A stretch of 64,000 nucleotides of DNA from Nitrospirota bacterium (GTDB lineage: Bacteria; Nitrospirota; Nitrospiria; Nitrospirales; Nitrospiraceae). The position numbers and the translations under genes are program-made. Positions 14,012 to 61,839 of this stretch are shown one piece after another. The stretch spans positions 96,001 through 160,000 of the forward strand of contig CAVPGK010000015.1 in assembly GCA_963703955.1 (NCBI GenBank), written 5' to 3'. Below the pieces are notes generated by a model. That model was not told where the DNA came from and made no database searches. It saw only the letters and a program-made list of their open reading frames with translations. Positions within the stretch are counted from its first letter, which is position 1. The number at the start of each line of letters is the position of its first letter.

Positions 14012-14812
14012 TCAGGCTTGTTCGGCAGGCTCTGGAGTCATGGAATCGGAGAGGGAGAGATTCTCTCCCTCTGCAGCCTCGACGTCCCCGACGACCAGTA
14101 GGTCCTCTCCGACGGGCAGCATGGCCTGTTCGGCCTCACCCAATTCCTTGAATTCCCGCAATGGCGGTAGCTCCGAGAGATCACGCAAGCCGAAATGCTG
14201 AAGGAAGTACTTCGTCGTCCCGTACAGTATCGGCCGCCCGGGGACTTCCTTGCGCCCGATCATCCGAACCAGTTTGCGTTCCAACAATGTTCGAAGGACA
14301 CCGGATGTTTCGACCCCACGAATCTCTTCGATCTCCGCACGAACAATCGGCTGCTTATAGGCGATAATCGCCAGGGACTCTAGTCCGGACCGGGACAGCT
14401 TGGGTGCCGCTTTTGTCTTGCCTAGCTGTTTGATCCATGGGGCATGTTCAGGCCTCGTCACCAGTTGAAAACCGCCGGCGACCTCAATCACCTGAATCCC
14501 GCGCTGACTCTGATCACACTCCTGTTGAAGTCGGAGCAAGACCTGCCGCACCTCAGTCTTCGAGACGCACTCCAATGTCGCGGTCAGCCGGTCAAGGGTC
14601 ACGGGTTGATGGGACACAAAGAGTAGAGCCTCCAATACCGACTTCAACTCCCCGTCATCGAGAATTCTAGAACGATTGGCTCCGTCCACAGCAGCCGGAT
14701 GATCACCCGGCGTGTCATCGGCCATCTTATCATCTGCAAGCAGGGTCTCTTCCGCCTTGTTGTGGATCTGGTCGAGGTCAAGACGATCCGTTGTGGTCAT
14801 ATCCCCTCCCAA
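14012..14812 (-). CDS. scpB: Segregation and condensation protein B
   Basis: LEALLF, LSRSGLESLAIIAYKQP, IEEIRGV, PGRPILYGTT..FL..FGL. Confidence 0.96.
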   Translation of the reverse strand: MGGDMTTTDRLDLDQIHNKAEETLLADDKMADDTPGDHPAAVDGANRSRILDDGELKSVLEALLFVSHQPVTLDRLTATLECVSKTEVRQVLLRLQQECDQSQRGIQVIEVAGGFQLVTRPEHAPWIKQLGKTKAAPKLSRSGLESLAIIAYKQPIVRAEIEEIRGVETSGVLRTLLERKLVRMIGRKEVPGRPILYGTTKYFLQHFGLRDLSELPPLREFKELGEAEQAMLPVGEDLLVVGDVEAAEGENLSLSDSMTPEPAEQA

Positions 14813-15594
14813 CCGGATTCTTTGGTTACCGCGTCAAGCGCCTGCTCGCTGACGGGTGTAAGGGCGCGCGTGACCAGGATGGGCCCAAAGGCCAGCCCTT
14901 GGAATACCCGCACCAACTTGAGACGGGTCAATTCCAACAATGCCAGAAAAGTCACGATGATCAACAGTCGATGTCCCTGATTCTCAAACAGCGACGCAAA
15001 AGTCACCGATTCTTTCCCGTCCAGCATTTTTAGAACGACATTCATGCGGTCCCTTACAGTCAGATTCTCAGCGGGGATTTCCATAAGACGCGTATGATGA
15101 GGTGTCCTTGCAAGGATGGCGTGCAGCGAATCGACCAGATCGAACAGCGTGACATCTTCGATCAACGACTCGTGTGAGTGGACCGTAACGGGAACCGCCT
15201 GTTCCCGATAGAACACCTCACGCCATAACCGCTCGCGCTCGTCGAGACGACACGCGGCTTCCTTGTATTGCTTATACTCCAACAGGCGACGGACCAAGTC
15301 CCCGCGAGGATCGGGCCCATCATCCTCATCGGTGTCCGTCTCATCGGTGGGGAGCAACATCCGCGACTTGATTTGCACGAGCGTGGCCGCCATGACGAGG
15401 AAATCACCGGCAACGGCCAGGTTCAGAGAAGTCATCAGGCCCAGATACTCAAGATATTGTTGGGTGATGAGCGCAATAGGAATGTCGTAAATGTTGATTT
15501 CATTTTTCTTGATGAGATGAAGCAGCAGATCTAGCGGTCCTTCGAACGTGTCGAGCCGCACCTGGTAAGGAACGTCGATTTGATTCTCCTCCAC
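14797..15594 (-). CDS. scpA: Segregation and condensation protein A
   Basis: FEGPLDLLLHLIKKNEINIYDIP, FLVMAATL..IKSRMLLP, VTFLALLEL; GTG start at 15594 with a GGAG RBS. Confidence 0.95.
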   Translation of the reverse strand: MEENQIDVPYQVRLDTFEGPLDLLLHLIKKNEINIYDIPIALITQQYLEYLGLMTSLNLAVAGDFLVMAATLVQIKSRMLLPTDETDTDEDDGPDPRGDLVRRLLEYKQYKEAACRLDERERLWREVFYREQAVPVTVHSHESLIEDVTLFDLVDSLHAILARTPHHTRLMEIPAENLTVRDRMNVVLKMLDGKESVTFASLFENQGHRLLIIVTFLALLELTRLKLVRVFQGLAFGPILVTRALTPVSEQALDAVTKESGWEGI

Positions 15595-15692
15595 TGTCTT
15601 CTCCGTGATGATAGGGAGCGTTATACCATCATTGGTGGATAAGGGCAAGCCGAATTCTATATATTGTGGCGTTCGCTGTCGGATGTCCGGCA

Positions 15693-16780
15693 TCAACGTT
15701 TCTTGAGAACCAGGACGAAGATGACCGTGACAACGCCAAGGTCGCGCCGATCCCATAGAGAAGCCGGGGGTCCTGGAGGCTGCCCCGCTTTGGAGGGTCA
15801 CTCGTCATCTTTGTACGGGTGAAGTTCGGCTCAAGGTTAAAAAAGACCTTGCTGAAGTCATGAAGTCCTTTGAACTGGGCATCAGAAAAATCCGCCTGCC
15901 CTCTAAAGGTTGATCGACGGAAGTACGCATCCTTTTCAAAAATAGTGAAGAGGAAAAAAATCTCCCGTTCGAACAGCGCCTCCGAAAAATCCAGATCACC
16001 GCCGAAACGACTTCCGGAAAACCCGGTTCCCATTTTGAAATACGTCCGTGAAAAACTGGCATCCTTTTCGAAGGAAACTTCCAGAAGTTCGGCCAAACCG
16101 TTAAAACCGGCTCGCACGAACGTCGCGCTTTCCCCGAACACCGCGCGATGAAACCGCGTATGATTTCCGAAGGCCGTTCGTTCAAAACGGGCGGGCTGAT
16201 CGAAGATGGCCTGGATGAAGTATCCTTCTCGCAAGAACACGGCGTCGGAGAAATCAGCGGCACCGGAGAAGACGGTGCGGGAGAAATCCACCGGCCGCTC
16301 GAACGTGGTCCCGATCATAGTGATGGGTTTCTTCGCGAGTATCAATCCGTCCTTCAATCGTGTACTGACCACACCACGGACTACCGAATCCTTGATGGAG
16401 ATCGATCCGGGAATCTGCCGCAGTTCCGTGAGCTGGCGGGCACGAATGGCCTGCTGCACTCTCTCAGACGGCAGAGCCTCGAAGTCCACCGGTCTGAGAG
16501 GCAATTGATCCAAAAAAAGATCGTCCTCTATGACGACGCCGACCAGATCCAAGCTTCGTCCGTTTTTCAAGACGTCCAGAATTTCATGAGCCAAGATGGG
16601 ATGTGCTCGACGGTCTTCTTCGGCACAATCCTTTCCGAGGCGCCGCACAAAAGAGTCGTCGCTGGTCGTACTTTCCATTGAACAGAAAGCCAGGGCCGCT
16701 GAGAACCGCAGGATGCAGCCCTCCACAAGAACACCAAACCCCACAATCGAAGCAAAGACGACCGTGGAAAGAAATCTCAT
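15693..16780 (-). CDS. Secreted pentapeptide-repeat protein with a probable C-terminal TM (1-bp deletion near 15732)
   Basis: Repeats DFSRTVF/DFSDAVF/SFSRTYF; a shifted frame restores GIGATLAL-TVIFVLVLKKR*. Confidence 0.75.
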
Positions 16781-27976: not shown

Positions 27977-28443
27977 CTATAAAGAATCACTGCTTACGCT
28001 CTCCCCACCTACGACGGCGAGGTCTGGTGTCATTACCGTGTTAGCATGATACGAAGCCACCAGTGCTGCCGCGCGATGAAGGTCTTGCGGTTCGATGGTG
28101 TTGTAGCGTCCGTGCATGCGCTCCGACTTGTGGCCCATTATTCTCATTGCCGTTCCTGTATCCACACCGGCCCGCCGGGAATTCCTACTGGCGATTTGCC
28201 TGAAGTCATGTATCCGCAGGTTCACGATGCGTGCCCGTCGGCAGGCCGCGTTGAAGGCCGTGCCAATCCTTACTAATTGGCTTCCCCTTATACAGGAAAA
28301 CACGCTGGGTGTCCAGACGTCGTTCTTGCCGAAGCGAGGCAAATATCTTACACACTTGTGGTGTCATTGGCACCACACAGTTTTTCCATTTTGGTGTCCC
28401 AAACGGTGAACTCTTTCTGCGGCAGATCCACATCTGACCATTC
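27977..28443 (-). pseudogene. Tyrosine recombinase/integrase C-terminal remnant (frameshifted)
   Basis: EWSDVDL...DTK, VVPMTP, AF..ACRRA.I.NLRIHDFR, IMGHKS..M..RY spread over three frames; ends 4 bp from the tRNA 5' end. Confidence 0.88.
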
Positions 28444-28547: not shown

Positions 28548-29246
28548 ATTGCCTCCATCCAAGACGCTTAGGGGGATACCTCCCTCAGTAATTTAATTTA
28601 CACCGATACATCGATTTTTGAAATAGCGACGCAGGAATGAACTTTTTGAGAAATACCTTCAACATGACGCTGAATGCCTCTGTACCTTACCTGTGCCGCT
28701 CGACCACCCCGCTAGTGGAACAATGGTGTCGCCGGGGTTGGGTTGCGCCTGGGTTGTGGATGTGCAGATCGTAAATGCATCGACAGGCGAAAAGTGCAGA
28801 CTTGCTTAAGTTGCATTGCTATATCCGAGGTGGCGAGGTTGATTAAGTTTTCGCACAATAGGCGCGCTATCCGTGACGGTTTGCATTGTCTTGGTAGGAT
28901 ACTCAGCCCTGCAGCCTGTGGTTTTCGCGCAGTTCCATTCACATTTCTTGACAGCTCCATCGCCCGATGCCTGGGCGAGGGGCGGAAGTCGAGGCGTGGG
29001 AAGCTACAGAGGGGGAAGTCGCGGGGTGGGGACGGTTGGGGGTTAGGCCCCAATACAAGGAGAGATGTCACATATGTCCAGCCACATCATAGAACGGCTC
29101 CCAATTCAACTCAGAGAGACAAATTCAGCAGTAGCGGAATGTGAACCCTTATACAGGGGAGGCTCGTCTCGTGCGACCCATGTTGACCACCTCTTGAGTG
29201 AGCAGGCCTCACTCTTTTCGAGGTGTCCACTATTATCGGCGGAGGT

Positions 29247-30737
29247 TCAGCCGCGGGTATCACGGCGTTGAGTTTTCGACAAGAGTCCATGCAACTTGTT
29301 CATCGTCGCTTCAAACTCGGTGGGATTAAAGACCGACCCACCCCGAGTCTCCTTATAGAGAACGTCGATCGTATCTTTTATCGTTTTTGACTCGGGCAGC
29401 GCCCCTGCGGTTTCAAGGTAAGCATCATACAGACTTGCCAGGGCAAGCACAGCCTGCTCGGCGGCTAGAAAATCAGATCCCGTGAGACCAATCCGATCAC
29501 CGGAGATGTTTTTCATCAGTGATAAGACACTTTGCTGCGTGAAGGTGAACTGGCCAACTTGTGAAACCAGTTTGTCGGAGAGTGCAAGGAGCCTACTGAA
29601 GGTCCCATTAGGCGATCCCTGGGAAATTTCCTTCTTTGTCAGCTCCTCGTGAAACGTCCTCATTAATTGCTCGAGGTGCTTTCCTTCATCTGATGCAGCC
29701 AGATTCACGACATGGCGAAAGACCGCGTAGCTTGAAGAATTCCATACCAACTGACCGGGCTTGCCTTCGTAATCTCTTCTCCGCCACCTCTGTTCACTCT
29801 TATCCTTCTCGGTGAGGCCATGCAAGCGATCGACTACCGCATGATGGCACGCAAAACAATCGAAGTGGGTAAAGTCCGGCCAGTGCCCGAAACTGGTATG
29901 TCGGCTTTCTGTTAAACGCTTTATCTCGTTGCGGAACGCTGCGGCCTGACCGATCGCCCATACTCGGGTGCTGAGCCATTCGCGGTCTTTTTTCTCTTGG
30001 GGGGGGCGCCAGTGGGGCGGCATCACGTAGGTATAGTTGTCGATCTCGAAAGTCAAGCGCGGGTGGCCCGCTCCGATAAGCTCATGAGTCACTTCCTTTC
30101 CATCAGCCCCCGCATGGCATTCGAGGCACTTCTCAGCACGCTTGACAAAGTCCTTCATATTGTTCATTCCGAGGGACGTCGCCTTTTGCCGGTCAAAGCC
30201 CGGCCGGATATGGGGGTTGAGCCATTTTTCGGCTGGGCCATGGCAGGCCTCGCAACTTACCGAGTCCGTTATGTCGTAGAACGGTCCTTGGCGGGCTGGG
30301 CTGACTGGCACCGCATGACAGACAAGGCATCGCTCACTGTCTTCCGGCTTGGCGATCTTCAGGTTTCTGGCAATGGTTTTGGCGTCCGCGCTCGTGAGGA
30401 CTTCATAAGCTTTGGCGTGCCTGTCTTTCTGCGACCAAATGTAAAACTCATTCTGTCCAATGCGCAATTTGTTACGCGCCGTGCTGTTTCCGTGGCAGTC
30501 GCTCCCACTACAAGAGGAAGCGCCCATATACTTGTAGAGATCATCAGAGTTGGTTTTTCCCGAGACTGCTGGATCCTTGTTTTCAGCGAGCGACTCTCTA
30601 TGCCATGCAGGCCGAGCAATGAAGACGCACAAGACGGTAAAGATACTTATGTCTATTAGTCCATGCGTGACCGTTCTCTTTGCTGATCCCTGTGTTATCA
30701 AGAGCAATCGTTTACGAATACAACCCTCCCGCAGCAA
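29247..30737 (-). CDS. Periplasmic pentaheme cytochrome c (c554/c552-like) with a helical C-terminus
   Basis: CSGSDCH (CX4CH), CLVCH, CEACHGP, CLECH, CFACH; N-terminal hydrophobic segment; start uncertain. Confidence 0.88.
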   Translation of the reverse strand: MLREGCIRKRLLLITQGSAKRTVTHGLIDISIFTVLCVFIARPAWHRESLAENKDPAVSGKTNSDDLYKYMGASSCSGSDCHGNSTARNKLRIGQNEFYIWSQKDRHAKAYEVLTSADAKTIARNLKIAKPEDSERCLVCHAVPVSPARQGPFYDITDSVSCEACHGPAEKWLNPHIRPGFDRQKATSLGMNNMKDFVKRAEKCLECHAGADGKEVTHELIGAGHPRLTFEIDNYTYVMPPHWRPPQEKKDREWLSTRVWAIGQAAAFRNEIKRLTESRHTSFGHWPDFTHFDCFACHHAVVDRLHGLTEKDKSEQRWRRRDYEGKPGQLVWNSSSYAVFRHVVNLAASDEGKHLEQLMRTFHEELTKKEISQGSPNGTFSRLLALSDKLVSQVGQFTFTQQSVLSLMKNISGDRIGLTGSDFLAAEQAVLALASLYDAYLETAGALPESKTIKDTIDVLYKETRGGSVFNPTEFEATMNKLHGLLSKTQRRDTRG

Positions 30738-31097
30738 CGGGTTATCGAGCAGCTGCTCTCTTCGTTGGCAGGGCGGGGCTGCCCAGCGGATTCTGTGTCG
30801 TTAGGCGGCCACGATCCTACCATAGGGTGTCAAGAGATTCTATCCACGTTCCGTCTGGCATCATGGATACGGCTGGTCCGAATTGCTTCCGGAAGTGACC
30901 GCTCAGGTGAGCGGTCTGAAAGACTTGAGACCGCCCTTGTGATCGGTAGCGCCCGCTCGCCTTAATTAGGCGGGGCAGTTATCAGCTTGACAACGCCAAA
31001 TGAGTATGCCAAAAGAGAGCCCGTCGGGACTATCATCAAAAAGGTTTGACGTTCCGCTTGATCGAGAATGTCATTCTCCAAGGAGGGGGGAAATGCC

Positions 31098-31559
31098 ATG
31101 ACGACCAGAAGATTGTTATCTAAAGGCCTATTCGTTCATGTCTCACTTGCCGTAGGCGTGTTGCTGGGGATGGTTACCCTAGCGGTCCAAGCTGCCGCGC
31201 CTCCCGAGAAGATCGAGATCGTTATCAAGGAAGGTGAAGCGAAGGTGGTACGCGGCTCCACGCTCAACGGAGTTCTGACCGAGATCAGCGTCCGCAATGA
31301 AGACACCATCACGCACGGGTTCAATTCCTCGATATTCGGGAAAGATACCAAAGTCGAGATGTCGGGTGGCTACCATGCAGACGTAAAAGGGCCGCATGTG
31401 TATCGAGTGGACCCAGGAAAGACGATGGTGCTTAAATTCACCTTGCCACCTCAATCCGGGGGCGAAACCATGACGTATGCATTCTGGTGCGACATGCACC
31501 GCTCTCTGAGGGGAGAAATGCTAGTTGTGGAGCAGACGGGGGAGATCGGTGGTGGATAA
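31098..31559 (+). CDS. Secreted cupredoxin-domain protein (axial Met replaced by Leu)
   Basis: Signal peptide; RNEDTITHGF; YAFWCDMHRSLRGEMLVV. Confidence 0.8.
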   Translation: MTTRRLLSKGLFVHVSLAVGVLLGMVTLAVQAAAPPEKIEIVIKEGEAKVVRGSTLNGVLTEISVRNEDTITHGFNSSIFGKDTKVEMSGGYHADVKGPHVYRVDPGKTMVLKFTLPPQSGGETMTYAFWCDMHRSLRGEMLVVEQTGEIGGG

Positions 31560-31645
31560 GACGGAGACCGCAGTTATCTGAGAACCTGTGGTGTCGGATC
31601 GGATGAAGCGGTTCCCCACAATGGGTCGCTGCAGCGTCATTCCGC

Positions 31646-32245
31646 TTAATGAGCCTGTTGGCTCAGCGGAAAAATGATCACAAGCGCTCCCATGACATCA
31701 TCTATTTTGAAATCCGTCTTCGGGCTGTCGCGGTGTGAGTTGTGGCACCCGATACACACAGTTGTGACAGCCCGATCGGCGTAGACCGCTCCGAAAAACT
31801 GCTCCCCGCCGCGACCGATGATGCCGGAATAGGGCCTGTCTGGATGAATTTGAACCTCTTCAAGGCCTCGCCGCTCGAATTCAGTGACTGGTATATTTGC
31901 CTTGTTGATTGGCCACTGACTGATCAGGTGATAGCGGACCTTCTGGCCGGTTAATTCGGCCATCTCGCTCGTCTCTTTTAGGAACTGAACAGGTAAGGGT
32001 AATGAGTTCGTTTCCCGCCAGTTTTCCGATACGTCAACAATCCCCTCTTGTAGCAGCCGGTTGGCGATGTGGATTGTGTAAAACTCCCGGTGAGCCATGA
32101 TCACGGCGTGCAAATAGTCAGCAACGGTTTGTGGAGGAATACCCCTCGGAGTCCCGAAGTCCTTCTCGACGGCGGTGACGCTCGAGATAACCAGCACCCC
32201 GATCACTACAATGACTGCAACCCACGTCAAGGTTTTACTGGTCAT
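31646..32245 (-). CDS. DUF3365/Tll0287-like monoheme cytochrome c
   Basis: N-terminal TM; LPLP, PIN..N.P..EFE, CIGCHN, FKIDDVMGA. Confidence 0.88.
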   Translation of the reverse strand: MTSKTLTWVAVIVVIGVLVISSVTAVEKDFGTPRGIPPQTVADYLHAVIMAHREFYTIHIANRLLQEGIVDVSENWRETNSLPLPVQFLKETSEMAELTGQKVRYHLISQWPINKANIPVTEFERRGLEEVQIHPDRPYSGIIGRGGEQFFGAVYADRAVTTVCIGCHNSHRDSPKTDFKIDDVMGALVIIFPLSQQAH

Positions 32246-32512
32246 GATTTCCCTCCTTCCCTAAGGGACTGGCCTCGTCAGGTAGCTCAAACGTAGACTC
32301 TCCCATATGTGAGGTCTCGTCAGGTCCATTCTTCTTGAATCCGCGAAAAGCCTACGCCGAAAAACCAGAATAATCTATCAATTTGACTGAACTGGCAGGG
32401 CTCAATAAACACAAAGCCCGCCATATAGGTTGAAAAAATGGTGCCTGGCCATTTCATGACATCGCCTGCTGTCCCCAAGTCCAACTGGCCAGAGACACAC
32501 AATCCACGTGCG

Positions 32513-34300
32513 CTAGGGCGAGGAAAGGTTCGCAGGGACTGAAGGGGGTGAAGCCTGCCCTTTCTTAAACTCTTCGATGGAGTACGGCTGATCTCCAGGC
32601 TTCTGTGCCTGGGACTTGTCGTGATAGACGTGACACGTCAGGCACTGCGTGCGCGCCCCCCCTGGCTCAAAATGGCAATTCCGGCAAGACGCGATCCCGG
32701 GCAGCAGAACGTCCTTGGTCTTTACGCTTCTGGGAGCCGCCTCGTGGCAGGCGACGCACTTGAGGAGGTTGTGAGCTTTGTGATCGAAGGTGCTGTAAGG
32801 TAACCAGCGCTCCGGCATGTCGGTCTTCACGATCGTGGGAAGCATCGGGGACTCTGACACGCGAGTGCTGGACTTTGCTCCACCGAACTGCGTTGACTGA
32901 GAAGCCCCAGCGGGAATGTCTAGCAGATGACAGAGCGCGCACTTACCTTTTTTCGCCTGTGAACCTGGGGGCCCCATAAGCAGCCGTTCCGACTCTTCCA
33001 CCATGCCGTTGACCCACATCTCCTCTTTAGGCCTGGGCGCGCCGGGCAACCGCCTCGCGGGCCCTCTGGCCTTCAGCTCAGGCTGGTGTTGCAGAAGATA
33101 GTACTCTGCATACGTTGCGCGAAGGAACCGGTCCACCTCCTCCAGAGCCTCTCCATGCGGGACAGTCTTCCCCGGCAAGCGCTCGTCGAAATCAAGAAGA
33201 TGGCACCGCATGCAATCCTTTTCATACTTCACCGGACGCATGTAAGCCCCTTGCTGGTCGCCTTGATGACAACTGGCGCAGGACAGTTGCTCCGGACCAT
33301 CGGGGCCCATAAGGTCCGGCTTCAGGTGGAGGTGGTGGTTGAACGTGATGGTCGCCGCATCCACCACTTGTTTGCCCTCGTCGAGCCCCACTCGTTGAAC
33401 AGCGTACCCCGGCCGCAACACTGAAATCGCAAATTCAGGATGGTCAGCCATGAAACTGTGGATCGCCGTCGTAATCGGCATGCGGGGTTCCTTGACCTTG
33501 AGGTCCGCGTGGCACTGAACGCAGCCCGCGAACACAGCAGTCAGACCCGCCTGGCCCCTGTGCTCAACGTGACAGCTGGCGCATTGCGGCGCCGGGCTGA
33601 ACGCCTGCTTGCTAAAATGCGGCGGCCCGCTGTGGCAGCTCAGACAGGTTTTGTCCGGCACGCCGGTGAGAACCGGGTTCCAAGCCACATGACAGCGCAC
33701 GCAGTCGTTGGCGAAGAGGCGATGCTTCATAGAAATCGATCCGGGCATGAACACCAAATGCTTCCCCAGCGCAGAGACTAGGGCGCTTCCCCCCAACACC
33801 ACCAGGACGGCCAAAAGGGTCACCGTGGTTTTATTGAAGTACCGGCCCTGAAGCTGGTAGGCCGCGAGCAAGTGAAATTTCTCGTCGCGCATCTTGGATG
33901 TAGGCGTGGGCGGGAGCGCTCCTAGCGCCGCCGTTGGCGGAGCCTCGCGCACGAGATCCGCAAGGACTTCGTACTCGATCGTGAAAGGTGAGGTCGGATT
34001 TGGCCGAGCAAACCGAAAGGTGTAAGGTCCGATTCGGATCACGCCGGCCTCGGGTAGGACGATCTCCTTGACGGGTACGTCGTTTACCCACGTAAGGTTC
34101 AGGATACTGAGGTCACGGAGTACATAGCATTCGCCCTCTTCTCGAATGACGGCGTGGTGGAGCTGGACTGAATGATCGTCCAGATGCAGGTCGTTGTCAG
34201 TCCCACGGCCGATACGGAGGGTTGTGCCAGAGAGTTCGGTCATCTGACTCTTCTCGCCGCCAGGTCCCAGCTTCTCCTTCGCGATGATCACAAACGGCAT
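32513..34300 (-). CDS. FHA domain - TM - decaheme cytochrome c
   Basis: LRIGRGTDND...HHAVI...DL...N.TWVN; one TM; ten CxxCH motifs. Confidence 0.9.
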   Translation of the reverse strand: MPFVIIAKEKLGPGGEKSQMTELSGTTLRIGRGTDNDLHLDDHSVQLHHAVIREEGECYVLRDLSILNLTWVNDVPVKEIVLPEAGVIRIGPYTFRFARPNPTSPFTIEYEVLADLVREAPPTAALGALPPTPTSKMRDEKFHLLAAYQLQGRYFNKTTVTLLAVLVVLGGSALVSALGKHLVFMPGSISMKHRLFANDCVRCHVAWNPVLTGVPDKTCLSCHSGPPHFSKQAFSPAPQCASCHVEHRGQAGLTAVFAGCVQCHADLKVKEPRMPITTAIHSFMADHPEFAISVLRPGYAVQRVGLDEGKQVVDAATITFNHHLHLKPDLMGPDGPEQLSCASCHQGDQQGAYMRPVKYEKDCMRCHLLDFDERLPGKTVPHGEALEEVDRFLRATYAEYYLLQHQPELKARGPARRLPGAPRPKEEMWVNGMVEESERLLMGPPGSQAKKGKCALCHLLDIPAGASQSTQFGGAKSSTRVSESPMLPTIVKTDMPERWLPYSTFDHKAHNLLKCVACHEAAPRSVKTKDVLLPGIASCRNCHFEPGGARTQCLTCHVYHDKSQAQKPGDQPYSIEEFKKGQASPPSVPANLSSP

Positions 34301-34311
34301 ACGGCGCTCGG

Positions 34312-35145
34312 CTAGTAATACAAAACCACAAGGAGGTGGATGCCCACGGCCGCCACCATGGCGATCGAGACAGGCACATGCACGTACAACCAGGCCTGGA
34401 GCCCATTCTTCAAGCGCATCTGGCCCGCCAGATAGGCCTCAAGTTCCGTCTTCCGCATGACCAGGCCGACAAACTTCGAAAAGGCTTCCTGATCGGACGA
34501 CGAGACACCCGCAAGCTGTTCATGAAGGTCATGCGTCCGCTGAGCCAAGATGGCATTGGGATCAACAGGCGTAAACAGGATGGGCCATCCCTGAGGCTTG
34601 AGTTCGCGGTACTGACGGACCTCCTCCTGGTAGAGGTGTTGAAAGATGCCGGGCTTGTCGGCGCCGAGTTGTCTCATCTCTTTGAGGATCTGATTGATCC
34701 CCGCCTCAATCGTCTCCGGGAGCATGCCTCTCTCATGCAACGTGAGGATCAGCGGGACCGTGAGATAAATGCGGAGCCCCACAATCCCGCTGAGCACCAC
34801 GACTACCAGCAGAACATAGGCGAGGGTATGGACATTCCATCCAAATCGAAAGCCAGCATGCATAGGGATGATCAGGAGAGTCAAAAGTCCGAGGTACACA
34901 TGGGCACTCGTCCAACCCTGAAGCGTGCCGAGGTGGGAGAAGTACCAGCGTTTCCGAATGCCCAGGAACATGAGCACCAGAATCGCGATCAGCCCGATCC
35001 ATCCATACACGAGACCCCAGACAGTGCTCCCAGAGGGAATTGTGGTGCGGCTGTAATAGGAATAGCTGAGGAGAAGGGCAACCGCTCCGATCACCGAGCC
35101 CCTCAGATAACGCTTCCTCCCATATGTCAGTAGCGTCCCTTGCAC
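34312..35145 (-). CDS. Integral membrane protein, putative diheme-b (ferric reductase-like TM) subunit
   Basis: About 5 TM segments; two helices each with H-X13-H (HVYLGLLTLLIIPMH, HVPVSIAMVAAVGIH). Confidence 0.8.
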   Translation of the reverse strand: MQGTLLTYGRKRYLRGSVIGAVALLLSYSYYSRTTIPSGSTVWGLVYGWIGLIAILVLMFLGIRKRWYFSHLGTLQGWTSAHVYLGLLTLLIIPMHAGFRFGWNVHTLAYVLLVVVVLSGIVGLRIYLTVPLILTLHERGMLPETIEAGINQILKEMRQLGADKPGIFQHLYQEEVRQYRELKPQGWPILFTPVDPNAILAQRTHDLHEQLAGVSSSDQEAFSKFVGLVMRKTELEAYLAGQMRLKNGLQAWLYVHVPVSIAMVAAVGIHLLVVLYY

Positions 35146-35195
35146 CGCTCGACGAAACCCTTTGATACCTTCGGTTATGCGATCGCCTTTGCCAA

Positions 35196-37556
35196 CTAGT
35201 CCCTGACAACCTTGATCCGATCAAAGAATTCTGCGGGACTGACCCGGAACGCCGCACCGGTGGGGCAGCTTCGCACGCAAGCCGGCCCGGCGGGATCGTT
35301 CCGGCAGAGATCGCACTTCACAGCCTTGGTCGGCTGCTCATCCGGGGTCATCTCTTCCGACGTGAGACCGATCAGACCCAGAAGTCGCCCCAACGCGCCG
35401 GTCTTAGGCTTCTGACGCATCATGAAGATCACGCCATAGGGGCAATTCGCCGCGCATTTGCCACACCCTATGCACTTGCCCTCGTCCACATAGACCTCGC
35501 CCCTGGGATCACGGCGGATGGCGTCGCCCGGCGGGCAATCAGTGAGACAGAGAGGATTCTCGCAATGGCGACAGGAGGTAGGAACCTTCAGAGCCCCGAA
35601 AAGGGCTCCCTCATGGCGATACAGACGCGTTTGGCCGTTGTGCGTCGCCGCACAGGCCGTCACACAGTTATCACACCGAACACACTTGCTCTCGTCAATC
35701 AGCAGGACATCGGTCCCCTGAAAGATGCCCTCGTTCAACAGTTCATCAAGGTGCCCTGACCCCGCCGAACCCATCAACTGCAAGGCCTGATACTCGATGA
35801 GCCGGCGTTCCATGGTTTGACGGAGAGTCCTCCGGAGTTCAGGGAATCTCTCCAGCATGATGTCAAAATCATCCTTCCTTATCAGAATGACTTCGGTTAG
35901 GGTGGTAGCCGTCACAGTGGCAATTCGATGTGAGTCCTGGGGGCTAAGTAGAGCAATCTCTCCAAAATACTGGCCGGCCGGGAGGTATTTCAGCACAATC
36001 TCATTGTGCCTCTCCCGCTTGCAGAGTTTGACCGAGCCGGAGCGGATCAGATAGAAGGCGTCCCCGATATCACCCTCCTTGAAGATGACCTCATCTTTCT
36101 GAAAGGACTTGATCTCGGCGTGCTGCGCTAACTCTTGCACGAAGCCCTCACCGCCGTCTGGAATGAGATGGGTCTGAATCGCCCGAGCGATGAACGCTTC
36201 GTCCAGAGATCGCCTGACCGACGGCTCGCTCGCCATCAGCTGGAGCATGGCCTTACGGGGTATTTCGAGCAGCGTGGCCGAACTCACGGTCGTGACCGTG
36301 CCTGATCTTCGGCGGCCTGAGAACAGGCTCATCTCGCCGAAGAAGGCGCCTTGTTTGAGAATCAACGGGTACCCCAATGGCAACGAGATCCCAACCTCCC
36401 CGTCCAGAATCATATACAGACTATCGGTGAACTCGTTCTCTTCAAAGACGACATGCCCTAGGGGCATTCGACGGATAGTCGCTTGCAGGAGCAGCTCACG
36501 GAGAGATTGAATCGGGACCTTGGCCAATAGCGGAATGGTTCGGGCAATGTGGGCCAACCGATCATTGATGCTTCCTTCAAGGAAATTCAGTTTTTCCCTG
36601 AGGAGCGGTGCCTCTACCGGCTCGATTTGGCGCCCCAGGATGTGCTCGACGACTTCGTAGCCATGGTTGATTCCTTGCTTGATGAGGTTGTAGCCGGCCA
36701 CTGCTCCAATCAGGTAGAGGCCAGGAATGCTCGACTCGTAATGCTCTGAGAGGATAGGAAGCGAGCTGGGGTCCTGGGATGTAAAGGTTACCCCGCATTT
36801 CTCTAAGAACGGCCTGGGCAAGGAGGCTCCGATACGGATGACCACAAGGTCGGCTTTCACCCTCACCACGCCATCGGGGATCAACACGACCGTATGCCCC
36901 GGCTCGAACCGGTCGATAGTGGCGCTGTGAAAGGCGACCACCTTCTTGGCTTTTAGCTTCTCGGTGATCTGGCGATCCAGCGCGTCCTTGAGCCGGTAAA
37001 ATTCCCTGCTGCGGTTGATCACGTAGACCCGATTCTTCTCGCACAGCGCCAGGACCCCTTCGATCGCGGCGTCGCCGGCGCCGACCATCATGATATCCAA
37101 ATCTTCATAGCTGAACGGATCGGTCATCTTATAGGTCACGTGCGGGAAGCCTTCCCCCGGCTTGCCGACCCGGTTGGGATTTCCCTGAACGCCGATGGCG
37201 AGAATGACGTGCTTGGCCTGATAGGTAGCCTTATCGGACCTGATGCTGAAAACGGCGTCCTTCTTGACGACCTCCTGGACCAGTTCAGGCCGATTGACCT
37301 GGACCTGAAATTTCCCGACCGCATCGTGCCAAGTCTGGAGAATCAGCTCCCGGGTTCCGGGTTCAAACGGCAAATCGCTGCGGAGGGGAATCATGGAGGG
37401 TTCGGCCATCACGTGCTTTTTCTTCTGATAGTCGAAGACCGTGTTGGCAAGCTCGCCTTTCTCGAGAATGAGAACGCTCAGGCCATTTTTCTTAGCATGA
37501 CACGCCGCGCTCAATCCCGCGGGCCCTGCTCCAACAACCAGCAGATCATAAATCAT
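35196..37556 (-). CDS. FAD/NAD(P)H oxidoreductase - 2x cNMP-binding - 4x[4Fe-4S] fusion protein
   Basis: GAGPAG, GAGDAA, PGLYLIG; FFGEMSL...RSGTV and YFGEIAL...RIATV; four Cys4 groups (DmsB/NrfC-type). Confidence 0.92.
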   Translation of the reverse strand: MIYDLLVVGAGPAGLSAACHAKKNGLSVLILEKGELANTVFDYQKKKHVMAEPSMIPLRSDLPFEPGTRELILQTWHDAVGKFQVQVNRPELVQEVVKKDAVFSIRSDKATYQAKHVILAIGVQGNPNRVGKPGEGFPHVTYKMTDPFSYEDLDIMMVGAGDAAIEGVLALCEKNRVYVINRSREFYRLKDALDRQITEKLKAKKVVAFHSATIDRFEPGHTVVLIPDGVVRVKADLVVIRIGASLPRPFLEKCGVTFTSQDPSSLPILSEHYESSIPGLYLIGAVAGYNLIKQGINHGYEVVEHILGRQIEPVEAPLLREKLNFLEGSINDRLAHIARTIPLLAKVPIQSLRELLLQATIRRMPLGHVVFEENEFTDSLYMILDGEVGISLPLGYPLILKQGAFFGEMSLFSGRRRSGTVTTVSSATLLEIPRKAMLQLMASEPSVRRSLDEAFIARAIQTHLIPDGGEGFVQELAQHAEIKSFQKDEVIFKEGDIGDAFYLIRSGSVKLCKRERHNEIVLKYLPAGQYFGEIALLSPQDSHRIATVTATTLTEVILIRKDDFDIMLERFPELRRTLRQTMERRLIEYQALQLMGSAGSGHLDELLNEGIFQGTDVLLIDESKCVRCDNCVTACAATHNGQTRLYRHEGALFGALKVPTSCRHCENPLCLTDCPPGDAIRRDPRGEVYVDEGKCIGCGKCAANCPYGVIFMMRQKPKTGALGRLLGLIGLTSEEMTPDEQPTKAVKCDLCRNDPAGPACVRSCPTGAAFRVSPAEFFDRIKVVRD

Positions 37557-37584
37557 AGAGGTAGCCTAATTGATCTTGTTTACT

Positions 37585-38001
37585 TTACGTGGCGAAAAAG
37601 ACGCGTCCCTTCACCGCCTTTTGCAATGCCGCCTTATGGACCGCCGCCACAAGCTCTGCCGGGCGGACCGGTTTAACCAGATAATCCATCACACCTTGCT
37701 CCATCTTCAACTTCTCGGCGTCTAGGAGATCAGGTGTCCCGGTCATCACAATCACAGGAATGGAGGGGAAATGCGAACGAAAGTACGTGATGGCCTCAAA
37801 CCCATTCATCTTGGGCATATACAGATCGCAGATGATGACATCCACCAACAGGGCATCCCCGTCTGATTTTTGGATGGCGGCAACCCCTTTCTCTCCTTCT
37901 TCGGCTTCGACCACATCATAGCCCGCCTGTGTCAGGATCAAACGGAGCATCTGCCTGAGATATGCATCATCATCGACCACCAGCACTCTTCCCAGTCCCA
38001 T
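37585..38001 (-). CDS. Single-domain response regulator (receiver)
   Basis: VLVVDDD, IICDLYMP, VMTG, DYLVKPV. Confidence 0.93.
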   Translation of the reverse strand: MGLGRVLVVDDDAYLRQMLRLILTQAGYDVVEAEEGEKGVAAIQKSDGDALLVDVIICDLYMPKMNGFEAITYFRSHFPSIPVIVMTGTPDLLDAEKLKMEQGVMDYLVKPVRPAELVAAVHKAALQKAVKGRVFFAT

Positions 38002-38161
38002 AGCATCCTCATATCAATTGATTCATTGAACTGTAAGAGACCCCTCTCTCTACGCGACCACAAAAGCGTGATCGCATTCTCCGTTCGAGACGTCTTGCCC
38101 CAATCGTTGGACCTCCTGCCATGCGACTCTATATGGTAAGTCCAGCACGAAAAGATTCGGA

Positions 38162-39385
38162 TCATCCTGACGCCCGAAATTCCACGATCGCAAATTTTCT
38201 GCGGCCGATGCGAAATCGATATGGACAACCCGGCTTCAATGTCAGGCTGGCGTTGGGATCCGTCTGCTTTTCATCGTTCACTTCCACGCCACCCTGGACA
38301 ATCAGGCGACGAGCCTCACTTTTGCTCGGGACTAACTTCGTCCGCGCCACCAGATCGACCAATGCCATGGCCGGCGCGTGCGCATTCGCCACATCGACCG
38401 AGGTGAGGGTCACGCGCGCATCTGGGTCAGCGGGAAATTCTCGTTCGCGGAATGTTCGCTGAAAGTCCGCCTTCGCACGTTCGGCGGCCGCGTCACCATG
38501 GTATCGAGACACAATCTGCTCCGCCAATGCCAACTTCTTCTCCATGGGATGGCCCGTCTTGACTTGGGCCAGATCCTGCGTGGTGAGCAGTTCATAGTAC
38601 CGGACCATGAGCGCATCGCTGATGGACATGACCCTGCCGAACATATCCCCAGGTTGATCTTCCAATGCGATATAGTTGCCGAAGCTTTTGCTCATCTTTC
38701 GAACCCCATCCGTGCCTTCCAGAAGCGGCGTGGTCAGCACCACCTGAGGTTCTTGGCCGAAGTCTCGTTGTAGATCGCGGCCGACGAGCAGATTGAATTT
38801 CTGGTCTGTGCCGCCCAACTCGACGTCCGCTTTAAGCGCGACGGAATCATAGCCCTGAATAAGGGGATACAAAAACTCATGGAGGCTGATGGGCTTCTGC
38901 TCGTGGTAGCGCTTATGAAAATCCTCCCGCTCCAGCATGCGGGCGACGTTGTAATGGGCGCTGAGCTGGATCAATTCCTCAGCCCGCATCGCATTCATCC
39001 AGCGGCTGTTGAACTCCACCGTTGTTTTTTTGCGATCGAGGATCTTGAAAATCTGCCGTTCGTAGGTTCTGGCGTTTTCCTCGACCTTTTCTTTGGTCAG
39101 CGCGACTCGGGTTTCAGACACGCCGGTGGGGTCTCCGATCATGCCGGTGAAATCGCCGATGAGAAAGATCACCTGGTGCCCGAGATCCTGGAAGTGCTTC
39201 AGCTTGTGAATGAGCACCGTATGGCCCAGATGAAGGTCCGGCGCCGTAGGATCAAATCCCGCCTTGACACGCAGGGGTCGATGCGCTTTGAGCGAGCGGG
39301 CGAGTTTGGCTTCGAGTTCGGACGGCTGAATGACCTCCACCGCCCCGCGGAGAATTAAGTCCAGCTGACGGGTCAGCTCACTCAC
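38162..39385 (-). CDS. tyrS: Tyrosyl-tRNA synthetase
   Basis: [33 protein letters not shown]4 domain. Confidence 0.98.
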
Positions 39386-55943: not shown

Positions 55944-56924
55944 TCATGCTCGTTCGTTCAAGAGTCTCGCGGCATCCTTGGCAAAATAGGTTAGGATGAG
56001 GTCGGCGCCCGCCCGTTTGATGGATAGCAACGATTCCATCATCGCCCGTGTTTCATCCAGCCAGCCGGCGCTGGCGGCGGCTTTGATCATGCTGTATTCT
56101 CCGCTGACCTGGTACGCAGCTACCGGCAAGGCAACGCGTGCCCGGGCCGCCGCGATCACATCCAGGAACGGCAGCGCCGGCTTGACCATGACGATATCCG
56201 CTCCCTCTTCGACGTCCAGGTCGATCTCGCGAAGGGCCTCCCGCCCATTGGCCACATCCATCTGATACGACCCGCGATCACCGAATTTGGGGGTGGAGTC
56301 TACTGCTTCACGAAACGGCGCGTAGAAGCAGGAGGCAAATTTGGCCGCGTATGACATGATCGGCAGATCGACAAACCCATGGCGGTCCAGTTCGTCGCGG
56401 ATGGCCGCCACGCGGCCATCCATCATGTCGGAAGGGGCCAGCATGTCCGCTCCCGCCTGCGCGTGTGTGCGCGCCATCGCCCGCAAACACTCCAACGTCT
56501 CGTCGTTGAGAATACGACCATCCTGCACCAAGCCACAGTGGCCGTGGGACGTGTATTCATCGATGCAGACATCCGTGATCACGAGCAACTCTGGCACCTG
56601 GTCCTTCAACATGCGCACGGCCTGTTGGACAATCCCGTCAGGATCATACGCCGACGACCCTCGCTCGTCTTTTCGGTCAGGGACGCCGAAAAGAATCACG
56701 GCAGGAATCCCGAGCAGTTTGACCTCCGCCGCTTCTTTGACGAGGAGATCCGCCGACCATCGGTACTGGCCCGGCATCGAGGTAATCTCTTCCCGCCGAT
56801 CCCGTCCCGTGGCGACAAACATGGGGTAAATCAAATCCTCGGTCGATAACTTCGTTTCTCGAACGAGACGGCGCAGCGGCTCATTCTGCCGCAATCGTCT
56901 CAATCGCTGTTGAGGAAACGCCAT
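55944..56924 (-). CDS. hemB: Porphobilinogen synthase
   Basis: [36 protein letters not shown]. Confidence 0.98.
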
Positions 56925-56967
56925 ATTCAAACCCGATTGTAGAGCAACACTCGACGTGTGATCCGGT

Positions 56968-57089
56968 GGCTGCTCAAAATGGCCCTCCCAGGAATCCGCA
57001 GTGACTTCGGGACGCCGAGCCGTGCATTTCGCCTACGTCGACGCATCCGAACGACTGACAATGAAGTTGGGGCCCTTTTTTCAGCAACC
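56968..57089. repeat. Dispersed MITE/REP-like element, copy 3
   Basis: GGCTGCTCAAAATGGCCC ... GGGCCCTTTTTTCAGCAACC. Confidence 0.75.
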
Positions 57090-57090
57090 G

Positions 57091-57483
57091 CTATTTTCTT
57101 GGAAGATTGGTCAGGAACACGACCAGATCCCGCACGGAGATCATGCCGACTAATTTTCCGTTCCGCGTGACGCCCAGATGCCGGAGGTGCGAGTTCGCCA
57201 TAATGTCATTGGCATCAAGCAGCGTTTTGTTTTCTTCGATCGTGACGATCGGCGCCGACATGATCTGCTCAATGGCCATCTTCGCAGGATCTCCTCCGAC
57301 GGCCACCGCGCGTCGCACCATATCCGTATCGGTCACGATACCGATAATCTCCTTGCCACGGGAGATGAACAGACTGCCGATATTCCGATCGCGCATGATT
57401 TCCGCCGCCTTTCGGACGTCGGTATCGCGGTCGACCGTGACGAATTTTTCCGCAGGGATCATGAATGATTTCACTGGCACCAT
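57091..57483 (-). CDS. Tandem CBS-domain protein
   Basis: M.....IGSL, GIVTDTD, IMS.P, RHL.V...GKLVGMISVRD. Confidence 0.93.
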   Translation of the reverse strand: MVPVKSFMIPAEKFVTVDRDTDVRKAAEIMRDRNIGSLFISRGKEIIGIVTDTDMVRRAVAVGGDPAKMAIEQIMSAPIVTIEENKTLLDANDIMANSHLRHLGVTRNGKLVGMISVRDLVVFLTNLPRK

Positions 57484-57594
57484 GCTGATTCTCTCCTTTC
57501 AACAGTTCTGCCAAAAACCGCCCACACGATCACCGTCTCACTCCTCCATCCGATCGCTCAGAGCCTCACCGGAAGCATGTTCGTTGCTCGACGG

Positions 57595-59148
57595 TTAATG
57601 GCTGGCGCGCTGAAAATGATCGACAATGGCCCGCACCAGCGCCGGAATCGTATTTTCCTCAGCCAAGACCGCAACCACCAGTCCTTCCTCCTCGGCAGTC
57701 TGCGCGGTGATCGGACCGATACAGGCCACAGCGGAACCCGCCATGAGTTTGTTCATCTCTTCCCGACTATCGAACAGCCCGCAAAAGTTGCGTACCGTCG
57801 ACGAACTGGCGAAGGTCACCACGTCGATCTCATGACGAACGAATCGGTCTTTCAATTGCCCGACTTCGAGAGATGCGCGGACCGTCCGGTACACGGTCAC
57901 GACCCGCACGTCGGCGCCCATCTGGCGAAGTTGTTCAGGAAGAATCTCCCTCGCCATGGCCGCTCGCGCGATCAGAACTCGCTGTCCTGTCACCTCGGCT
58001 TTCAGAGCGTCGATGAGCCCTTCGGCCTGAAATTGACCAGGAATCACATCGGCGCTCAATCCGTATCGGCTCAACTCCTCCGCCGTTCTGGGGCCGATGC
58101 AGCAGAGCCTGAGACCCGAGAATGCCCGAGCATCCCGGCCTTGCTGCCGAAGGCGTTCCATGAAAGGGCGCACCCCGTTGACGCTCGTGAAGACCAACCA
58201 CTGAAAACGAGTCAACTCGGCAATAGCTGTATCCACCTCTGTCCAGTCTTCCGGGGGGGCAATTTGAATCACCGGACATTCGACCGGTTCGGCTCCATGA
58301 TCCAGCAACAAACGAGACAGCTCTCCGGCCTGTTCCCGAGCACGGGTCACCAGAATCCGCTTGCCGAACAAAGGCTTGCGCTCGAACCAGTTTAATTGCT
58401 CTCGAAGGCGAACGACGTTCCCTACAACGATCACGGTTGGCGGTTCGATCGCCGCGTGCGCGGCCTTCTGCACGATATCGCCCAACGTTCCGACCACGGT
58501 ACGCTGCGTTGAGCGAGTCCCCCAACGGATCAACGCCACTGGCGTGTCAACCGACTTTCCCTCCGTCGTCAGGTGTTCGACAAGAGCCGGCAGGTTCTTC
58601 AGCCCCATGAGGAATACCAGGGTGCCGTTGCCGGAGGCCAATCTCGGCCACTCCAATCTTGTTCCCCCTTTTGCCGGATCCTCGTGCCCTGTCACGAACG
58701 TGACCGTCGATGCCAACGTCCGATGGGTCACCGGAATGCCTGCATAGGCCGGCACCGCCACAGCCGACGTCACACCGGGAACGACCTCGAAAGGAATTCC
58801 TGAGGCGGCAACGGCTTCAGCTTCTTCCCCCCCACGTCCGAAGACAAAGGGATCTCCTCCCTTGAGCCGTACGACAATTTTGCCTTCACGGGCCTTGTCG
58901 ATGAGTAACCGGTTCACCTCCTTTTGATCCTGGTAGGCCCCTCGACCCCGGCGACCGACATACAATCGCTCGGCGTGAGCCGGAACGAGATCGAGAAGGA
59001 CAGGATTGGCTAAGTAGTCATAGAGCACGACATCTGCCTGTTCGAGGCATTCTTTACCCCGAATCGTTAATAGTCGAGGGTCTCCTGGACCTGATCCAAC
59101 TAAATAAACTTTTCCATAGTTCACAGATGATTTCTCAGGCTTGACCAT
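57595..59148 (-). CDS. cobA: Uroporphyrinogen-III C-methyltransferase / uroporphyrinogen-III synthase fusion
   Basis: [26 protein letters not shown], then HemD ILVTRA, FTSVNGV, FASSSTV, CIGP.TA. Confidence 0.96.
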
Positions 59149-60408: not shown

Positions 60409-60427
60409 AACCGTGTCTCCACATCCA

Positions 60428-61836: not shown

Positions 61837-61839
61837 AGA

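Follow-up and report, generated by a model that had tools for sequence, protein, structure and literature searches.

Gene clusters that pair a transmembrane protein with multihaem cytochromes have been described in one paper and two preprints, and here we analyze a further locus of this kind, four genes at positions 32513-38001 of a 64,000-nucleotide stretch of DNA from a Nitrospirota bacterium (contig CAVPGK010000015.1; this whole stretch is called the window throughout). As far as the main text of the paper goes, PCC4 (He et al. 2017, Front Microbiol 8:1584, PMC5566968) comprises a porin, cytochromes with four, five and ten haems, and a five-helix inner-membrane protein in which helix 4 bears an SGXXG motif and helices 3 and 5 carry the two WX3HX13H motifs. 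Its authors predicted two b haems in a ferric-reductase-like arrangement and the passage of electrons across the inner membrane, and their model runs inward to quinone. In subgroup II of PCC4 a gene for an iron-sulphur (Fe-S) protein of the pfam13247 type lies 5' of the membrane-protein gene, and subgroup I is without an Fe-S gene. The terms cNMP (cyclic nucleotide monophosphate), FHA and FAD (flavin adenine dinucleotide) each occur zero times in that main text.

The ptdABCDEFG cluster (bioRxiv 10.1101/2023.11.21.568154, 2024), in the part of the preprint that introduces it, encodes a pentahaem cytochrome (PtdA), a porin (PtdB), an oxidoreductase of FAD and nicotinamide adenine dinucleotide (phosphate), NAD(P) (PtdC), a tetrahaem cytochrome (PtdD), a protein with cNMP and 4Fe-4S domains (PtdE), a ferric-reductase-like protein that spans the membrane (PtdF), as well as a decahaem cytochrome (PtdG). 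It was reported in Nitrospirales, Alpha- and Gammaproteobacteria, and its function is 'completely unknown' according to the authors. The 'NHC' (nonahaem cytochrome) module of Ferrigenium straubiae (bioRxiv 10.64898/2026.01.22.701106), in the section devoted to it, centres on a multihaem cytochrome that is anchored in the membrane and has its FHA domain in the cytosol. This cytochrome adjoins a [4Fe-4S] protein and a membrane protein of five helices and was expressed in all conditions tested; the model given there leads from Fe(II) oxidases toward quinone.

Matched by motifs, domains and gene order, the three large genes of the window's module are identified as the inner-membrane core of a PCC4/ptdEFG-type cluster, an assignment made from the published descriptions. 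Since He et al. and the two preprints already describe the gene set and name it in print, the window is a further carrier and not a new system. A preliminary description of the window knew of no characterized redox complex with this signal-gated design, and that statement stands. No functional study of the module and no follow-up of the ptd preprint was found in the literature, subscription-only papers lying outside the search.

The four open reading frames (ORFs) are co-oriented on the minus strand with spacings of 28, 50 and 11 bp, every item of this arrangement having been given correctly beforehand. In their 5' to 3' order they are:

37585-38001, minus strand: receiver protein, 138 amino acids (aa), from ORF and Pfam
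35196-37556, minus strand: flavo-Fe-S fusion, 786 aa, from ORF and Pfam
34312-35145, minus strand: five-helix membrane protein, 277 aa, GTG start, from ORF
32513-34300, minus strand: FHA-transmembrane-decahaem cytochrome c, 595 aa, from ORF and Pfam

The receiver gene is separated from the upstream tyrS by 160 bp and the cytochrome gene from the next downstream gene by 267 bp. With modest confidence, we consider it probable that the three large proteins form one complex which conducts electrons from cytoplasmic NAD(P)H to the periplasm and is probably gated by a cyclic nucleotide. NAD(P)H would reduce FAD in a YpdA/TrxR-like domain without a redox disulfide, and the electrons would then move to the four [4Fe-4S] clusters of a C-terminal ferredoxin domain docked on the cytoplasmic face of the five-helix protein. 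Two bis-His b haems, with H82/H256 near the cytoplasm and H96/H270 near the periplasm, would take them across the membrane, where the membrane-anchored cytochrome would carry them over its ten c haems and pass them to soluble or anchored partners, for example the linked tetrahaem cytochrome, a likely electron partner. A tandem cNMP sensor with the layout of a PKA regulatory subunit would gate the flavin-to-Fe-S step. Electron export by this route is likely to be quinone-independent. The wire from FAD through Fe-S and haem b to haem c that the preliminary description had drawn fits both the order of the modules and the predicted topology, and the domain content it listed (receiver; FAD/NAD(P)H, two cNMP and Fe-S; two H-X13-H; FHA, transmembrane helix and decahaem) is borne out by Pfam, the Cys pattern and the motifs.

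The flavo-Fe-S subunit, which on a reading of its sequence has neither signal peptide nor membrane segment, is made up of three parts:

36612-37556, minus strand: FAD/NAD(P)H domain, aa 1-315 (Pyr_redox_3 at residues 6-284, E 4.9e-37)
35787-36560, minus strand: tandem cNMP-binding domains, aa 333-590 (cNMP_binding in two stretches, E 5.9e-40)
35199-35714, minus strand: sixteen-Cys ferredoxin domain, aa 615-786 (several Fer4 families)

The flavin domain has its fold and two dinucleotide motifs in common with YpdA/Bdr and TrxR, and among solved structures YpdA/Bdr (7a7b, E 1.3e-23) is the closest to it. Both GxGxxG/A motifs are invariant or nearly so in 52 orthologues, as are N181, R182, R188 and K190, and the NAD(P)H site G-A-G-D-A-A-I-E occurs in 52/52. 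An assignment of this domain as a bacillithiol-disulfide reductase of the YpdA/Bdr type or as a thioredoxin reductase was rejected: no NCBIfam model reached its cut-off (TIGR04018, 163.7 against 339.9 bits; TRX_reduct, 64.2 against 343), and residues 1-320 contain no CXXC. In the ferredoxin domain the cysteines fall into the groups 625/628/631/635, 662/665/670/674, 695/698/701/705 and 748/751/760/764, all sixteen being invariant among 52 sequences, a pattern that points to four [4Fe-4S] clusters. The relatives of this domain include HycB3/HycB4 (7qv7 and others, E 7.6e-19 to 1.7e-9), and Fer4_11 (PF13247) is matched at E 1.7e-10 in the 786-aa protein, whose gene lies 50 bp 5' of the membrane-protein gene.

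The tandem between these two redox parts resembles PKA/PKG regulatory subunits, its closest solved relatives. Its first cassette, F-G-E-M-S-L..R-R-R-S-G-T, has the Glu and the Arg in 52/52 orthologues each, and the second, G-E-I-A-L..R-I-A-T, has the Glu in 50/52 and the Arg in 52/52. Because both cassettes keep the canonical phosphate-binding Glu and Arg, the prediction that both sites bind a cyclic nucleotide is well supported. A link to cyclase or Ser/Thr kinase genes, which had been looked for, did not materialize within the window, where Pfam detected neither among the encoded proteins. Elsewhere in the genome there are one class III cyclase and two Hanks-type kinases, and the cyclase gives the genome a source of cNMP.

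No Pfam or NCBIfam family matched the membrane protein at E <= 0.01. Its AlphaFold2 model (predicted local distance difference test, pLDDT, 86.5; predicted template modelling score, pTM, 0.77) has five long hydrophobic helices:

aa 5-34, 42-63, 75-96, 105-137 and 216-276: model helices of the membrane protein (AlphaFold2)

In this model a helical insert of ~110 residues separates helices 4 and 5. The motifs W78-X3-H82-X13-H96, W252-X3-H256-X13-H270 and S119-G-I-V-G123 (SGxxG) recur throughout the family, with two HX13H in 48/48 members, two WX3HX13H in 47/48 and SGxxG in 46/48, and H82, H96, H106, H256 and H270 are invariant over the same 48 sequences at 29-88% identity. H82 and H96 fall in helix 75-96 of the model and H256 and H270 in helix 216-276. 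As for a ferric reductase relationship, PF01794 matched 3/48 members at E <= 1 (best 0.0076), and a ferric reductase did not stand out in the fold searches with Foldseek and VIA-align. Atlas neighbours with scores of 0.96-0.97 are automatically named 'ferric reductase like', and the protein's own family may be what they represent. When a profile of the membrane protein was run against PDB sequences, only coiled-coil noise on its cytoplasmic loop came back.

The cytochrome is likewise tripartite:

33965-34300, minus strand: FHA-fold domain, aa 1-112 (Pfam FHA at residues 29-91, E 3.5e-12)
33749-33832, minus strand: membrane helix, aa 157-184 (hydrophobic segment)
32621-33724, minus strand: ten-haem domain, aa 193-560 (ten CXXCH between residues 200 and 557)

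This order, an N-terminal FHA domain, one membrane helix and then the haems, fits a cytoplasmic FHA domain and outer haems. All ten CXXCH are retained in 71/73 complete orthologues. Nine histidines outside these motifs are conserved in at least 72/74, and H228 lies one column off a column with at least 90% His; these conserved extra histidines fit c haems that are probably bis-His ligated.

The FHA part is modelled at a pLDDT of 92-97 (residues 1-110) and followed by a disordered linker (118-153), and with Foldseek it matched the structures of GarA, OdhI and FhaA at E ~1e-7. An FHA-like N-terminal domain aligns in 70/74 orthologues and is detected by Pfam in 45/74, and the four without an alignable one include two Arenicella loci. 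We take the canonical phosphothreonine contacts of FHA domains to be the Arg of G-R, the Ser and His of S-x-x-H and the Asn of N-G, and an alignment to FhaA (3po8) served to locate them. Where V-S-R-x-H has its Ser, the window has Gln46 and 39 orthologues have Ala, with Ser or Thr in only 3/70. The other contacts are retained to different degrees (Arg in 69/70, His in 64/70, Asn in 49/70 with Asp in 16). Because the canonical Ser is replaced in 67/70, the domain is perhaps a docking fold and not a kinase read-out; a role in assembly or docking appears more likely than phosphothreonine reading, and a non-canonical phospho-site would still be compatible with its residues.

The receiver gene at the head of the operon is of another kind. 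It encodes a bare receiver domain (Pfam Response_reg, E 1.3e-27) in whose sequence the pocket residues D10/D11, D59, T87 and K110 can be recognized. Among ten relatives from the same order an orthologue stands directly 5' of the module only in two, G026 and G029 (68-75% identity), and none was found at the other 8 order-level loci or at the proteobacterial loci. Because only these two closest relatives carry it beside the module, the receiver gene is read as a lineage-specific local addition outside the conserved core. In one Nitrospirales metagenome-assembled genome (MAG; locus L004, 55-4940), genes for CheW-receiver, CheW, receiver, Hpt and receiver-LuxR proteins are found just 5' of the flavo-Fe-S gene. 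Of the three signalling inputs that the preliminary description had seen in the operon, cNMP binding thus stands, with its canonical Glu and Arg, while the other two are weakened, the FHA domain by its lost Ser and the receiver by its presence in only 2/10 order-level relatives, and a count of three is overstated.

The unusual density of signalling domains (tandem cNMP, FHA fold, receiver), together with those chemotaxis-type genes in L004 and a window that encodes no terminal enzyme, would also suit a redox-sensing signal device, in which the decahaem cytochrome reports the periplasmic redox state to the FHA domain, the cNMP domains and, here, the receiver. We regard this as very unlikely. 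The redox equipment, with a full NAD(P)H/FAD domain, sixteen invariant Fe-S cysteines and ten haems, goes far beyond what such a device needs, the module is without an output domain (kinase, cyclase or DNA-binding), and the receiver is not conserved. Moreover, large multihaem cytochromes follow the module in Proteobacteria, which fits electron transport.

That the three large genes belong together is supported by their distribution. A profile search of 1.84 billion proteins with the membrane protein yielded 4449 representatives (50% identity) at E <= 0.001, 2591 at 1e-10 or lower and 390 at 1e-30 or lower; 2182 relatives were recognized among 7999 candidates scored, and at least 573 species-level genomes (one genome per species) hold a confirmed relative. 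From these at least 573 confirmed relatives, 80 loci were kept for the survey: one from a MAG labelled Chloroflexi at 82% identity, three from Nitrospirales MAGs at 59-62% and 76 others at 30-39%, these last mostly from Alpha-, Beta- and Gammaproteobacteria and with cultured strains among the carriers, such as Sphingomonas sp. 1P06PA (locus L013) and Alteraurantiacibacter aquimixticola SSKS-13 (L056). Wherever the downstream flank reaches 1.9 kb or more, the membrane-protein gene is followed 3' by the cytochrome gene (73/73 loci). Of the 65 loci whose upstream flank measures 2.6 kb or more, 55 have a full flavo-Fe-S gene directly 5' and one has a fragmented copy; in all 55 the YpdA/TrxR-type flavin domain is fused to the PtdE-like part. 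The order of the three large genes is also retained in 10/10 order-level relatives, and it is common to Nitrospirales and to Alpha-, Beta- and Gammaproteobacteria at 30-40% identity. The conserved neighbourhood that the preliminary description had asked about is therefore found for the three large genes, and their standing as one conserved unit is supported.

The nine loci without an adjacent flavo-Fe-S gene are of a betaproteobacterial type, and together with PCC4 subgroup I, which in the main text of He et al. (PMC5566968) is without the Fe-S gene, they would agree with separate jobs for the products, that is, a soluble cNMP-regulated reductase beside an unrelated pair of membrane protein and cytochrome. 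We give this explanation very little credence, less than any other weighed here. A full-length flavo-Fe-S orthologue was present in 5/5 of the non-adjacent genomes tested, and at least two of them have it in the same extended cluster, since in L037 and L078 it lies, to judge from contig numbers and coordinates, on the same strand some ~11 kb downstream; at L048 the gene lies 3 kb downstream of the module. The retention of gene order from Nitrospirales to the three proteobacterial classes at such low identity also speaks against separate jobs.

Natural fusions, known to us as protein sequences, do so too. In P0223 (1110 aa) the membrane domain comes after an entire flavo-Fe-S protein (aligned over residues 15-778 at 41% identity), and P0129 (823 aa, from a 2.1-Mb contig) consists of two cNMP domains and Fe-S (E 4e-41) followed by the membrane domain (E 2e-13), in which all four membrane-domain histidines are retained; in P0130 the Fe-S part is joined to the membrane domain. 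He et al. (PMC5566968) note in their main text that in Oceanospirillum beijerinckii the Fe-S and membrane proteins are annotated as a single gene. Because the Fe-S domain precedes helix 1 in every fusion, it would be placed on the cytoplasmic side, beside the H82/H256 pair. Two further candidates, P0125 and P0126 (824-832 aa), were set aside, as their garbled low-complexity linkers look like frameshift or gene-call artefacts in high-GC contigs.

Outward flow is downhill in redox terms and aided by the membrane potential, and inward flow to NAD(P)+ is uphill on both counts. Because inward flow to NAD(P)+ would run uphill in potential and against the membrane potential, we infer an outward direction. 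A path of this kind would drain both reducing power and membrane potential, which would explain the presence of a cNMP sensor between the flavin and Fe-S modules. A more specific version of the proposal, which we put forward tentatively and as possible at best, is a second-messenger-gated, NOX-like and quinone-independent 'electron valve', in which cyclic AMP or cyclic GMP opens the flavin-to-Fe-S link and the degenerate FHA domain latches the subunits together. Such a valve would charge multihaem cytochromes of the periplasm at the cost of NAD(P)H and membrane potential.

Several points weigh against the proposed complex and its direction. That the membrane protein binds two b haems is predicted from its motifs; against PF01292 (prokaryotic cytochrome b561) the window protein scores 15.4 bits, far under the cut-off of 30.1. 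Foldseek against the PDB returned nothing for it at E <= 0.001, and the di-haem matches of VIA-align (4D2 at Z 9.1; CybB 5oc0 at Z 8.1, root-mean-square deviation 3.6 over 129 residues) are level with those of unrelated helical bundles (Z up to 10.7). NAD(P)H use and specificity are likewise read from motifs, some cNMP domains bind other ligands, and the assembly of the three proteins has sequence evidence as its basis. No terminal acceptor or catalytic periplasmic enzyme was identified in the window, and the outer components found with the module elsewhere (pentahaem cytochrome and others) were not found in this genome, which is 82% complete. The module is present in iron and nitrite oxidisers, where inward flow would be useful, and a quinone site on the membrane protein would be compatible with its sequence. 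Lastly, both He et al. 2017 and the Ferrigenium preprint, in the portions cited, propose models in which electrons travel the opposite way, from outside donors to the quinone pool.

An inward, quinone-linked conduit would have the decahaem cytochrome collect electrons from donors in the periplasm or outside the cell, such as Fe(II) or reduced cytochromes, and the five-helix protein act as a quinone-reactive cytochrome b, the flavo-Fe-S subunit being a side outlet or regulator. It is the model of He et al. (PMC5566968), is discussed in the corresponding section of 10.64898/2026.01.22.701106, and draws on the occurrence of the module in iron oxidisers and Nitrospirales and on the lack of the Fe-S gene in PCC4 subgroup I (PMC5566968, main text). 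The family evidence lends it something as well: 45/48 members match PF01292 at E <= 1, if weakly (best 9e-7), and members of PF01292 react with quinones. An NAD(P)H-flavin-Fe-S gene that is adjacent in 55/65 loci and sometimes fused is, however, not called for by a role with quinone only; electrons from the periplasm to Fe-S, FAD and NAD(P)+ would have to climb uphill against the membrane potential; and no quinone-binding motif was identified in the membrane protein, a negative that a sequence alone cannot turn into absence. On this balance we hold the inward conduit to be rather unlikely, and outward transfer from NAD(P)H through a cNMP-gated complex continues to be the reading we prefer.

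Within the window's own order a strong match was found in 11/201 genomes; leaving out the window's genome, the counts per family are 1/87, 2/87, 7/21 and 0/5. For the module proteins, identity is 77-82% with their counterparts in a sister family and 50-57% with those of G015, a genome of the window's own family. TyrRS and FtsH, encoded on the flanks, are closer to this own family, and two genomes of that family remain syntenic with the window only as far as tyrS. Because the module and the flanking housekeeping genes disagree in their closest family, this pattern of identity and synteny suggests that the module was gained laterally, and a fragment of an integrase at 27977-28342 adds a hint in the same direction. 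A genomic island was considered from the stop of synteny at tyrS and that fragment, and was not adopted, as its borders could not be defined.

Around the module, on the cytochrome side and beyond, the following genes were found:

31646-32245, minus strand: Tll0287-like protein, one CXXCH, 199 aa (Pfam PF11845, E 2.2e-16)
31068-31559, plus strand: cupredoxin-like protein, 163 aa (Pfam Cupredoxin_1, E 1.3e-5, under the curated cut-off)
29247-30737, minus strand: tetrahaem cytochrome, Cytochrome_C554-like, 496 aa (Pfam PF13435, E 4.6e-12)
27977-28342: integrase fragment, beyond the tetrahaem gene

The tetrahaem cytochrome has four CXXCH and one CX4CH, and its hydrophobic N-terminal segment would make it membrane-anchored or secreted. 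In 12/80 loci a relative is encoded no more than 8 kb from the module. Such a relative is placed directly 5' of the flavo-Fe-S gene and in the same direction in G122, G073 and G115, and is linked to the module also in G026, G029 and G015. The protein is probably a PtdD-type partner, the published PtdD being compared by its description. In two marine alphaproteobacterial loci (L024, 136-5442; L045, 50-5377), secretin and prepilin-peptidase genes adjoin the tetrahaem gene and the module.

The Tll0287-like gene adjoins the module only in G026 and G029, and eight more copies of its family, with 46-61% identity, are scattered over the 3.3-Mb genome (contigs C13, C17, C3 and C10), five of them grouped on C17. 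The cupredoxin-like gene is also found beside the module in G026 and G029, at ~63% identity. The relation of either neighbour to the module is uncertain.

In proteobacterial loci (L009, L021, L024, L028) three genes follow 3' of the decahaem gene: the first encodes a protein of ~600-700 aa with HbpS-like (PF03928) stretches, the second one of 600-780 aa with no Pfam match or an SH3 domain, and the third a multihaem cytochrome of 700-850 aa. None of the three was found by tblastn in the window or its genome; ORF-cluster counts of the loci are rough, since ORFs in overlapping frames are mixed in. At L048 the gene directly after that for the flavo-Fe-S protein (14577-15800) encodes a DUF3095 protein (E 2.2e-133), which was found at no other surveyed locus nor in the window's genome.

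Upstream of the module, Pfam recognized tyrS, a ComEA-like HhH protein, a dihydrolipoyl-dehydrogenase-like flavoprotein and gcvH. Past the tetrahaem gene come the integrase fragment, Sel1, Slp and recG, unrelated to the module, and the remaining window is housekeeping. It includes a haem-biosynthesis operon (55944-62643, minus strand; ~20 kb from the cytochrome module) with genes for glutamyl-tRNA reductase, porphobilinogen deaminase, a methylase/HemD fusion and ALAD, and a Cytochrom_C_asm gene. Also recorded were, at 11066-13918 (minus strand), a 950-aa protein with an FAD-linked oxidase, a 4Fe-4S dicluster and two CCG domains, of the GlcD/heterodisulfide-reductase-like type, and, at 7303-9054, adjoining transposase genes of the rve integrase-core and DDE_3 types.

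A scan of 29000-38400 for promoters and terminators gave fewer sites than in shuffled sequences and nothing usable. Contigs from four soil RNA libraries match parts of all four genes at 90-100% identity; in one run, pieces with 0-1 differences fall on the flavo-Fe-S gene, and one contig, from a relative, bridges the junction of the membrane-protein and cytochrome genes. These contigs show presence, as distinct from co-transcription, strand or level, and their uncovered stretches carry no meaning; they are a weak hint that the four genes are expressed, DNA carry-over being possible.

If the outward reading is true, the module would provide a widespread, quinone-free and cyclic-nucleotide-controlled passage of electrons across the inner membrane, with relevance for extracellular electron transfer and for the cycling of iron, manganese and nitrogen. 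If the valve holds as well, it would represent a mode of respiratory-chain control new for characterized bacterial redox complexes; we know of no such complex with second-messenger-gated control of this type. New relative to the published accounts are the scale of the linkage survey, the natural fusions, the findings that both cNMP sites are canonical and that the FHA site is degenerate, and the recognition of the receiver as a local add-on. The interest of the module lies in its mechanism and cNMP control, not in the novelty of the gene set, and it merits experiment.

In comparison with known systems, the module's input and membrane crossing recall in principle those of NOX/FRE and MsrQ, in which a cytoplasmic NAD(P)H-flavin unit feeds two stacked bis-His b haems on H-X13-H pairs without a quinone. 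An NAD(P)H-flavin input, predicted in the module, and two H-X13-H (or X12) pairs on two helices are found on both sides. However, the membrane protein is not a detectable PF01794 member and has five helices against six in NOX, in the module the flavin is separated from the haems by a cNMP tandem and a four-cluster Fe-S wire, and its acceptor is a ten-haem cytochrome instead of O2, Fe(III) or MsrP. The C-terminal ferredoxin domain has the same sixteen-Cys pattern as its sequence relatives HycB of formate hydrogenlyase (7z0s), HycB3/4 of HDCR (7qv7) and PsrB/NrfC (2vpw), subunits of a type that forms a linear electron wire in its enzymes. It differs from them in being fused to a flavoprotein and a cNMP tandem, in its cytoplasmic location and in its type of membrane partner.

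Closest are the published clusters, compared here within the portions of the sources cited above. With PCC4 subgroup II the locus shares the Fe-S gene, the membrane protein with all three motifs and the decahaem cytochrome, and its tetrahaem cytochrome is a probable further counterpart. The porin and the pentahaem cytochrome of PCC4 are not in the window; a search of the genome, 82% complete, for a pentahaem cytochrome (PF02335) gave none either, and the finding of no porin applies to the window, the rest of the genome being without a porin search. Because these two components are not in the window, it holds the inner-membrane core and not the whole published cluster. Against NHC, the window's cytochrome has ten haem motifs where nine are given, cNMP and FAD go unmentioned in the section on that module, and its authors saw no redox motif in the membrane protein, whereas four invariant histidines are evident in the window's family. 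With ptd the agreement extends to gene order, since three order-level relatives of the window carry the tetrahaem, flavo-Fe-S, membrane and decahaem genes in the order D-E-F-G. The window itself departs from ptd in having its tetrahaem gene downstream and not upstream, in the receiver gene at the head of its operon, in an FHA domain that the corresponding part of the ptd preprint does not mention, and in being without PtdA, PtdB and a separate PtdC, in whose place a YpdA/TrxR-type flavin domain forms the N-terminus of the PtdE-like protein.

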